From: Eledone cirrhosa | Taxonomy: Eukaryota | Direction: 5' to 3' | DNA: 64,000 bases | NCBI GenBank assembly: GCA_964016885.1 | Contig: OZ024742.1 | Span: 32,550,001 to 32,614,000 of the forward strand | Part shown: one piece after another, positions 29,559-30,870 of the stretch | How positions within the stretch are numbered: position 1 is the stretch's first letter | Layout of the letters: every line of letters begins with the position of its first letter | Translations under genes and position numbers: made by a program | The notes under the pieces: generated by a model | The model's database searches: none | The model's input: only the letters and a program-made list of their open reading frames with translations | Told to the model about the DNA's origin: nothing

Positions 29559-30870
29559 AGCATAACAAATGGAACTCCAAATAGAACAGCTAGGGCGAGG
29601 TCTTTTTGATGAAATTTCTGGATGAGAAATTATAAGCATCCTTTGGAAGATGTCATGAATGTTATCTTTTACTGAAAGCTGGTGAGATCTTGCAGCTGCC
29701 CCACTCTGGAATGACCCAATGTGTTTGTTCTAACTTTCAACTTGTTCTAGTTCACAATTGACTGTCCAACAAACCATTCAAAAATTTCCCAACTGTAAGC
29801 ACATGTTTGAAGGAATGGTGGAATTATAACTACCCATGAGAAGCCTCTCTCTTTAAGAAATGAGTCTTTTAGGTGTAACATTAAAAGCCTTCAGTCTGTC
29901 AGATCTTACCTTCTCATTCATCGATTGTGAGCATAACATTGGTCAAAAACATATGGAGCATAACATTGGTCAGAAACAAGAATATTTCATAATTGTCCTT
30001 GTCTTTCTTGTTCAAAATAAGATAACATATTTTGGTAGTTTTTCGAACTGAAAAATCGGTCAGCCAATGATCTTATATTGGTGTTCCCAACTATACTATT
30101 AGGTGAGTTCATTAGCATTCCAGTAGTTGACTTGATATAGTCAATACACTGTTGCTTGGAATGCTGAATAAACATTTCCAGCTTTCATGTTTTTTTTACC
30201 AGCAACCAAGTGATACATAATCTTTTGAGCAAAATCTAATGATCTCAGTTTGAAGTGAAGGTCTGAGAAACAATGCAAATCTGCTTTTATATTGTTTTCA
30301 TGGCACCCTGCCTTACACTACTAGAATATAATATCTCACTAGCAACCAATTTTTCCAATGCTTCCTTGCAGAAATTATAATCCTTTGTTATCTGGAATAC
30401 ATCAGATATTAATGAAGTATCATTTGCATCAGTTCATGTGGTATGATATTGTCACCTTGAAGAAAAGATACCATCTTGCCATTAATCATTGAACACTGTT
30501 TTGCAGGTGACATTCACATTTATGTCATTCAATGTGACACATGAATCAAACCTTTCCCTGATAACATCCAAAGAAATCAAGTTCTACAGACAGCCCATCT
30601 TGATCCTCTATAGCTTGTACCAATGAAACTGGATGAGCAAACACAGTGTTGTTTGGAACAGAGTTTGCCCAAATAACGTTATTAGTGAGCTATAATTCTA
30701 ATGACAACATAAATAAGGTCTTGTTTGCTGGGCCCAGAGTGCCATTTCTAAGTATGCCAAATCTATCCCTATGAAGTAATTGATAAAATTTACAAATCTA
30801 ATACATTTATTTTCCTGCCAACCACAAATCACGGAAATTATACAATTTTTGCAGCAAATTCCAAAAAAAA
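29559..30870 (-). pseudogene. Decayed RAG1-like / Transib-superfamily DDE transposase (catalytic core plus C-terminal tail)
   Basis: Hand translation across frameshifts gives motifs in the expected order: EFAAKI; IWANSVPNNTVFAHPVSLVQAIE; CSMINGKMVSFLQGD; CFSDLHFKLRSLDFAQKIMYHLVAG; GMLMNSPNSIVGNTNIRSLADRFF (ORF 29987..30175); SWVVIIPPFLQTCAYSWEIFE; EQVES*NKHIGSFQSGAAARSHQLSVKDNIHDIFQRMLIISHPEI; RPRPSCSIWSSICYA. Confidence 0.8.

Follow-up and report, generated by a model that had tools for sequence, protein, structure and literature searches.

On the minus strand of the 64,000-nucleotide stretch analysed here (the window), the letters from 30737 down to 29578 are the remains of a Transib transposase. 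A frameshift-aware alignment matched them to residues 274-683 of P0001, an intact 711-aa Transib transposase, with 56% identity over 388 aligned residues, 9 frameshifts and 3 stop codons, and its score of 911 (tblastn E 9e-63) compares with 35-39 for five shuffles; none of the three raw frames, with stops written as X, gave a Pfam match. P0001 was one of two intact relatives (711 and 712 aa) retrieved with a 142-codon piece of a sister copy. The initial annotation had read the region as a fossil RAG1-like transposase, and the frameshift-aware search that it proposed bears out its motifs, which lie where it had placed them on the minus strand; the coordinates of the second catalytic Asp, changed to Asn, and of the catalytic Glu were confirmed by the alignment to P0001. 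The features are collected in Table 1.

Table 1. Parts of the Transib copy and of the insertion within it, in window coordinates
Feature	Position	Strand	Basis
5′ TIR, CACAGTG start, ~18 bp; left end of the element	31188..31205	-	28 of 30 terminal bases equal the family majority
SINE-like insertion of 168 bp, (GAT)n-tailed, foreign to the element; splits the subterminal region	30999..31166	-	gap in element alignment
5′ non-coding segment, up to the junction of the shared deletion	30738..30998	-	comparison of copies
Decayed transposase remnant, residues ~274-680 of a 711-aa relative	29578..30737	-	alignment to P0001
Second catalytic Asp (D2) changed to Asn, codon AAT, in SMINGKM	30481..30483	-	alignment to P0001
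alpha11-alpha12-equivalent insert (ITKDYN...), between zinc cysteines and LHFKLR motif	30255..30445	-	aligns with RAG1 ITRS...RVKG and BbRAG1L
Catalytic Glu codon, in VES*NK (relatives: ESWNK)	29736..29738	-	alignment to P0001
Beginning of the C-terminal zinc-tail motif, where the copy is truncated	29578..29588	-	alignments to P0001 and copies

The boundary at 31205 is common to 17 aligned copies, and the CACAGTG itself stands at 31205-31199, contrary to the initial annotation, in which no TIRs had been recognised. Because the SINE-like insert lies between them, the left TIR of the window is cut off from the element body; this insert has 15 matches within the 64-kb window, itself counted, and its tail presumably resembles octopus repeats. 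Lost at the deletion junction are the start codon, the NBD/DDBD/PreR part and the first catalytic Asp (D1), which are retained only in two other copies, L009 and L032, and the two zinc cysteines past D2 are also deleted from the window copy. Homology to the element stops at 29578. The CTT-like zinc tail proposed earlier is genuine in the letters C-S-I-(W), and the real tail, CSICGEI..HTAQ, is carried by other copies, but the remaining "SSICY" is flanking sequence. The 3′ kilobase and the 3′ TIR are absent from the window copy, and no match to the 3′ part was found near the window. The D2-E spacing of ~248 codons in the fossil is an artefact of decay, shortened by deletions.

Elsewhere in the window, an unbroken LINE ORF of 972 codons (50585-53503, minus strand) encodes an endonuclease and a reverse transcriptase with a PHD-like finger inside, and broken relatives of it lie near 45175-45726 and 58325-59600. 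A 21-kb array at 2919-23900 consists of ~538 copies of a 39-bp unit (93% matches, strong G/T skew), and a 472-bp unit is repeated 4.1 times at 96% at 48227-50184, with a further piece near 53500-53900. An open frame of 326 codons at 60985-61965 (minus strand) matches the PTB/PID domain and is probably a host exon, which we take to resemble TBC1D1/4; this gene may contain the Transib fossil or lie in front of it.

The fossil belongs to a dispersed family. A DNA search of the 3.0-Gb genome, in which the window occupies C3:32550001-32614000, returned at least 58 matched stretches at no fewer than 40 places with 68-92% identity, a lower bound on copy number in that the best 40 candidates were scored, and 20 loci were fetched. 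The fetched copies have sharp common ends ~2.6 kb apart; both ends start with CACAGTG, the exact RSS heptamer, and 16 of 18 terminal bases are inverted-identical. Among the 13 two-ended copies, an offset of 5 bp scored best for TSDs (0.54 vs 0.21-0.44 for other lengths), with two perfect cases (CAGAG and CAATG) and two with four of five bases identical (permutation p=0.0055); the window copy, its 3′ end lost, cannot be scored in this way. TSDs of 5 bp and targets of the CAxxG type are described for Transib in the available part of an earlier report (PMC1131882). A candidate second TIR element of 11 bp at an offset of 9 bp matched at 9 of 11 positions, and 120 of 1000 shuffles did equally well, so that a bipartite TIR asymmetry does not rise above chance; an RSS-like nonamer, sought by eye only, was not accepted. 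The family majority is 69% identical to P0001, and no intact copy was present among 79 protein matches in the genome that were examined with a strict filter, or in a further search that scored 40 of 362 candidates. One copy, L013 (C3:38.09 Mb), is a sister of the window copy, 92% identical over 635 bp, and has two small deletions in common with it and a different 5′ flank. Near position ~600 of P0001 most copies read FLQMCAH, and the intact relatives as well as L009, L012 and L015 read FHQM, so that the copies have in common the loss of a probable zinc His.

Comparison of copies also points to how the family was shortened. A ~610-bp block that bears D1 in L009 is missing from 18 of the 19 loci compared, the window among them, and the nineteenth, L020, does not reach the block. 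The true N-terminus, matching the profile from position 4 onward, is retained in L032, which lacks the middle, and D-D-E is present in P0001 and in L009; together L009 and L032 suggest a parent near 3.7 kb, relative to which the dominant derivative would be short by ~1.1 kb. On either side of the deletion junction stands GCA, a 3-bp microhomology pieced together from two other copies, themselves decayed. Subsets of copies with different flanks, for example the window copy and L013, have additional frameshifts and deletions in common, and therefore copies already defective were probably moved in trans; since no intact copy was found in the genome, the source of the trans-acting transposase is one that we infer. 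Substitutions are near-neutral, with a pooled pN/pS of 0.88 and a K2P of 0.10 from the majority (20 loci, L013 partly misaligned), and pN/pS is 0.83 for the window copy.

The explanation that we favour, at a probability of roughly 0.86, is that the fossil is a truncated and decayed copy of a multicopy Transib, devoid of D1, which likely spread as a non-autonomous passenger of a transposase made elsewhere. The parent would have been an element of ~3.7 kb with a single ORF of ~710 aa, and its transposase, by analogy with HzTransib and RAG1, would have bound the CACAGTG ends, nicked them and formed hairpins on the flanks, the nick-hairpin cut-and-paste chemistry that is described for HzTransib and RAG in the available parts of two sources (PMC7204232; bioRxiv 10.64898/2026.08.26.747230); its insertion would have left a 5-bp duplication. 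Repair at the 3-bp microhomology could have removed ~1.1 kb of the parent, and the shortened element would have continued to move in trans up to the death of the source, its copies decaying afterwards. The available text on Kodama/Nozomi, a non-autonomous Transib pair of Drosophila (bioRxiv 10.64898/2026.08.26.747230) describes a similar course, in which a precise internal deletion with microhomology produced a short derivative that outnumbers its parent; there, however, the parent is intact and active, whereas all copies seen of the fossil family are dead and ~10% diverged.

What kind of transposase the parent carried can be read from its relatives, for which homolog searches gave 75 proteins and 1606 cluster representatives, the best 150 of them listed. 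The D2-E spacing is 263 in P0001, 261 in the column majority of the copies and 257-264 across those members of the close lineage that are complete, and it is 261-279 in all 26 more distant long-spacing Transib proteins examined, 209-214 in five classical-type (short-spacing) proteins and 255-259 in 16 RAG1L proteins, these last obtained via a coral-type RAG1L/RAG2L locus. The RAG1-type spacing of the initial annotation thus stands as a membership of the long-spacing class, though not as the figure of ~248. The difference in length falls in the stretch from the zinc Cys pair to the LH motif, where 64-70 residues compare with 30-34 in classical Transibs, which lack ~35 residues there. Because this stretch aligns with ITRS...RVKG of RAG1, the earlier recognition of an ITK...R.G segment was correct; the equivalent of alpha11-alpha12 is absent from HzTransib and from the five short-spacing proteins. 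The fossil lineage therefore retains alpha11-alpha12, a Subgroup I trait, and does not show the loss (D2-E ~210) of Subgroup II.

The zinc tail divides the lineage. In the fossil's subclade, all 16 intact proteins read Cx2Cx3GHx4 without the final Cys and carry a His 7-8 residues past the His of GH, a predicted CCHH zinc site, and among 12 other lineage members the fourth tail Cys is kept in eight and the tail motif is missing in four. The final Cys is kept in 14 of 15 RAG1L and 18 of 26 long-spacing proteins; the motif occurs in none of the five classical proteins. None of 28 lineage proteins has a RING, which 12 of 15 RAG1L proteins carry, and the lineage has the Transib-type GGNTN (GNTN) loop and lacks the PreR loop of RAG1L. 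Many intact relatives, including P0001, stand on contigs of 3-3.9 kb, a size expected of collapsed active transposons; no relatives were found in GTDB genomes and IMG/VR. In the ESM Atlas the nearest clusters carry PF26100 on 28-38% of their members, with RAG1 clusters lower, which we regard as a lead only.

Structure prediction for P0001 was confident (pLDDT 88.9), and its model superposed on HzTransib with Z 29.9 (rmsd 2.9, 467 aligned), on RAG1 with 29.5, on BbRAG1L with 26.4 and on the P element with 11.2; a Foldseek search with the model placed RAG1 first by the narrowest margin. With HzTransib and RAG1 tied in this way, structure was rejected as a discriminator of the family. A GRP-type NBD-like region of the model superposes on RAG1 (model 92-676).

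Sequence comparison separates the candidates more clearly. The family majority is 18-22% identical to the 16 RAG1L proteins, 21-26% to the five classical ones, 24-29% to the long-spacing proteins and up to 71% to members inside the lineage. Sequence search gave E 3e-21 for HzTransib vs 0.037 for RAG1, and the profile match to RAG1/Transib on which the initial annotation had staked its reading scored 181.5 bits for HzTransib, 76 for BbRAG1L and 56-67 for RAG1; Pfam RAG1 reached a weak 19 bits on P0001, below its cut-off. In the available part of Martin et al. (2020, PMC7204232), Transib is told from RAG1L by less than 22% identity and the lack of an N-terminal non-core region. Of the solved structures, HzTransib (PDB 6PQN, 6PQX) gives the strongest match by sequence and by profile, and it shares with the lineage MIDGK at D2, the GNTN-G loop, the fold, the CACAGTG ends and a 5-bp TSD of the CA-x-x-G type. 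RAG1L (BbRAG1L 6B40, coral L043) and vertebrate RAG1 share with the lineage the fold, the D2-E spacing class, alpha11-alpha12, the start of the tail motif and the heptamer, but they differ in sequence and in having a RING/N-terminal zinc region, a PreR loop and a RAG2L. Judged from its sequence, the fossil's transposase is not a RAG1L.

Trees, built with the insert columns removed, from sequences other than vertebrate RAG1, HzTransib and the named Tao sequences, and with anchors labelled by spacing and Pfam, set RAG1L apart, on a long stem, as a 100/100 clade and nested the copies with P0001 (98/94). The lineage joined the classical Transibs in three trees, with SH-aLRT 83 (77 rows), 94 and 87/87 (43 rows), the careful tree and the AU tests using 43 of the 77 rows, with partial proteins and near-duplicates left out. 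In the best tree (87/87), the lineage would be the sister of classical, Subgroup II-type Transibs. An AU test did not reject a grouping of the lineage with RAG1L (lnL 13.8 lower, p=0.142) or a clade of the lineage with all long-spacing proteins (p=0.254). The suggestion of the initial annotation that RAG1L, and not classical Transib, is the closer relative of the fossil draws support from neither identity, profile score nor the best tree.

If that suggestion were nevertheless right, the lineage, which is of marine type, would be the Transib branch nearest RAG1L, a RAG2-less sister of the RAG transposons, and with dozens of intact members and a RAG2-binding alpha11-alpha12 surface it would offer a living, RAG2-free stand-in for the transposase by which RAG2 was captured. 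We consider this improbable. The AU test leaves room for it, with the lineage and RAG1L on one side of a branch, and it is consistent with alpha11-alpha12, the GRP-type NBD-like region, the CxxC-GH tail and CACAGTG at both ends, as well as with a spacing (257-264) nearer to RAG1L (255-259) than that of other long-spacing Transibs (261-279); yet three trees set the lineage beside short-spacing Transibs and apart from RAG1L, and RAG1L is the group of lowest identity to the family majority. Moreover, because the traits in question are present across the 26 other long-spacing proteins, they are likely ancestral.

Much less probable still is that the fossil is the remnant of a true RAGL transposon, with a RAG1L and a convergent RAG2L that decayed in the 3′ kilobase. 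About 1 kb does separate the stop codon from the 3′ TIR, at the place of RAG2L in ProtoRAG, but in these 1043 bp the longest open frame of the family majority has 64 codons (31.5% GC vs 41% in the coding part), although in that majority the transposase part is nearly open, with one stop in 435 codons. A coral RAG2L query turned up no RAG2L among the copies (best E 0.7) or in the 3.0-Gb genome, none of 12 frames gave a Pfam match, and a coral RAG1L core query had no match in the genome; the Pfam RAG1 and RAG2 families also matched nothing there, a search run with no positive control, and as PF03089 misses coral RAG2L too, its part of that search is uninformative. The linked Kelch-PHD RAG2L gene that marks RAGL elements is thus not found within the TIRs, as the initial annotation had remarked of a RAG2-like partner; the intact relatives are 700-aa proteins on ~3-3.9-kb contigs, and the lineage falls outside the RAG1L clade. 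The least probable reading, to which we give almost no credence, is a domesticated host gene or a pseudogene of one: nothing was found in its favour, and it is refuted by the lesions, the 9 frameshifts and the pN/pS of the window copy, together with TIRs, TSDs and dispersed copies.

A coral-type RAG1L ORF with a convergent RAG2L was seen on metagenome contigs L043 (496-3444, minus strand) and L044 (894-2267, plus strand). By eye, this pair is near-identical to FcoRAGL (Tao 2022, PMC9435367), and the first tail Cys of the L043 RAG1L is changed.

We return to the reading of the fossil as a Transib. Subgroup I Transibs are defined by the alpha11-alpha12 region, the CTT1 tail (Cx2Cx3GHx4C) and asymmetric TIRs, and have been termed intermediates (Tao et al. 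2022, PMC9435367). Like the lineage, they have a single DDE transposase with alpha11-alpha12 and an NBD-like segment, CAC-starting TIRs and a CxxC-GH tail with a short terminal helix after it, and in the part of that paper available Mnemiopsis MleTransib_2823 and 6236, of Subgroup I, match by eye our long-spacing groups P0197/P0124 and P0073/P0076. The intermediate Transib lineage proposed in the initial annotation is therefore apt in its alpha11-alpha12 and CTT-like tail, but it is not novel, having been published as Subgroup I. The lineage differs in that the fossil's subclade replaces the fourth tail Cys by a distal His (16 of 16) and that the best tree joins the lineage to classical Transibs. 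In the supplement text of Tao 2022, as far as it was available, neither the lineage motifs ExWNK and LHxKLR (line breaks in that text may hide matches, and HvuTransib-9 was not seen) nor a cephalopod term was found, and no title or abstract opening in the literature search, which covered sources other than Repbase and Dfam, described such a cephalopod element.

The fossil element is well explained and mostly already known: it is a non-autonomous Transib, now dead, built on the Subgroup I plan, and its lineage is apparently uncatalogued. Ordinary in itself, it is of value as a pointer to that lineage and its many intact ~700-aa members (75 proteins), and the novelty lies in a lineage, rich in intact members, in whose tail a His takes the place of the fourth Cys. 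No structure or biochemistry of a Transib bearing alpha11-alpha12 was found in PDB and literature searches, and an intact member would therefore allow a direct test of the alpha11-alpha12 surface without RAG2. Should the best tree be true, for which we see about even odds, the lineage would be a sister of the classical Transibs that keeps alpha11-alpha12, Subgroup I would be a grade and not a clade, and the three states of the zinc tail (Cys-ending, His-ending and lost) would order the losses behind HzTransib-type enzymes.
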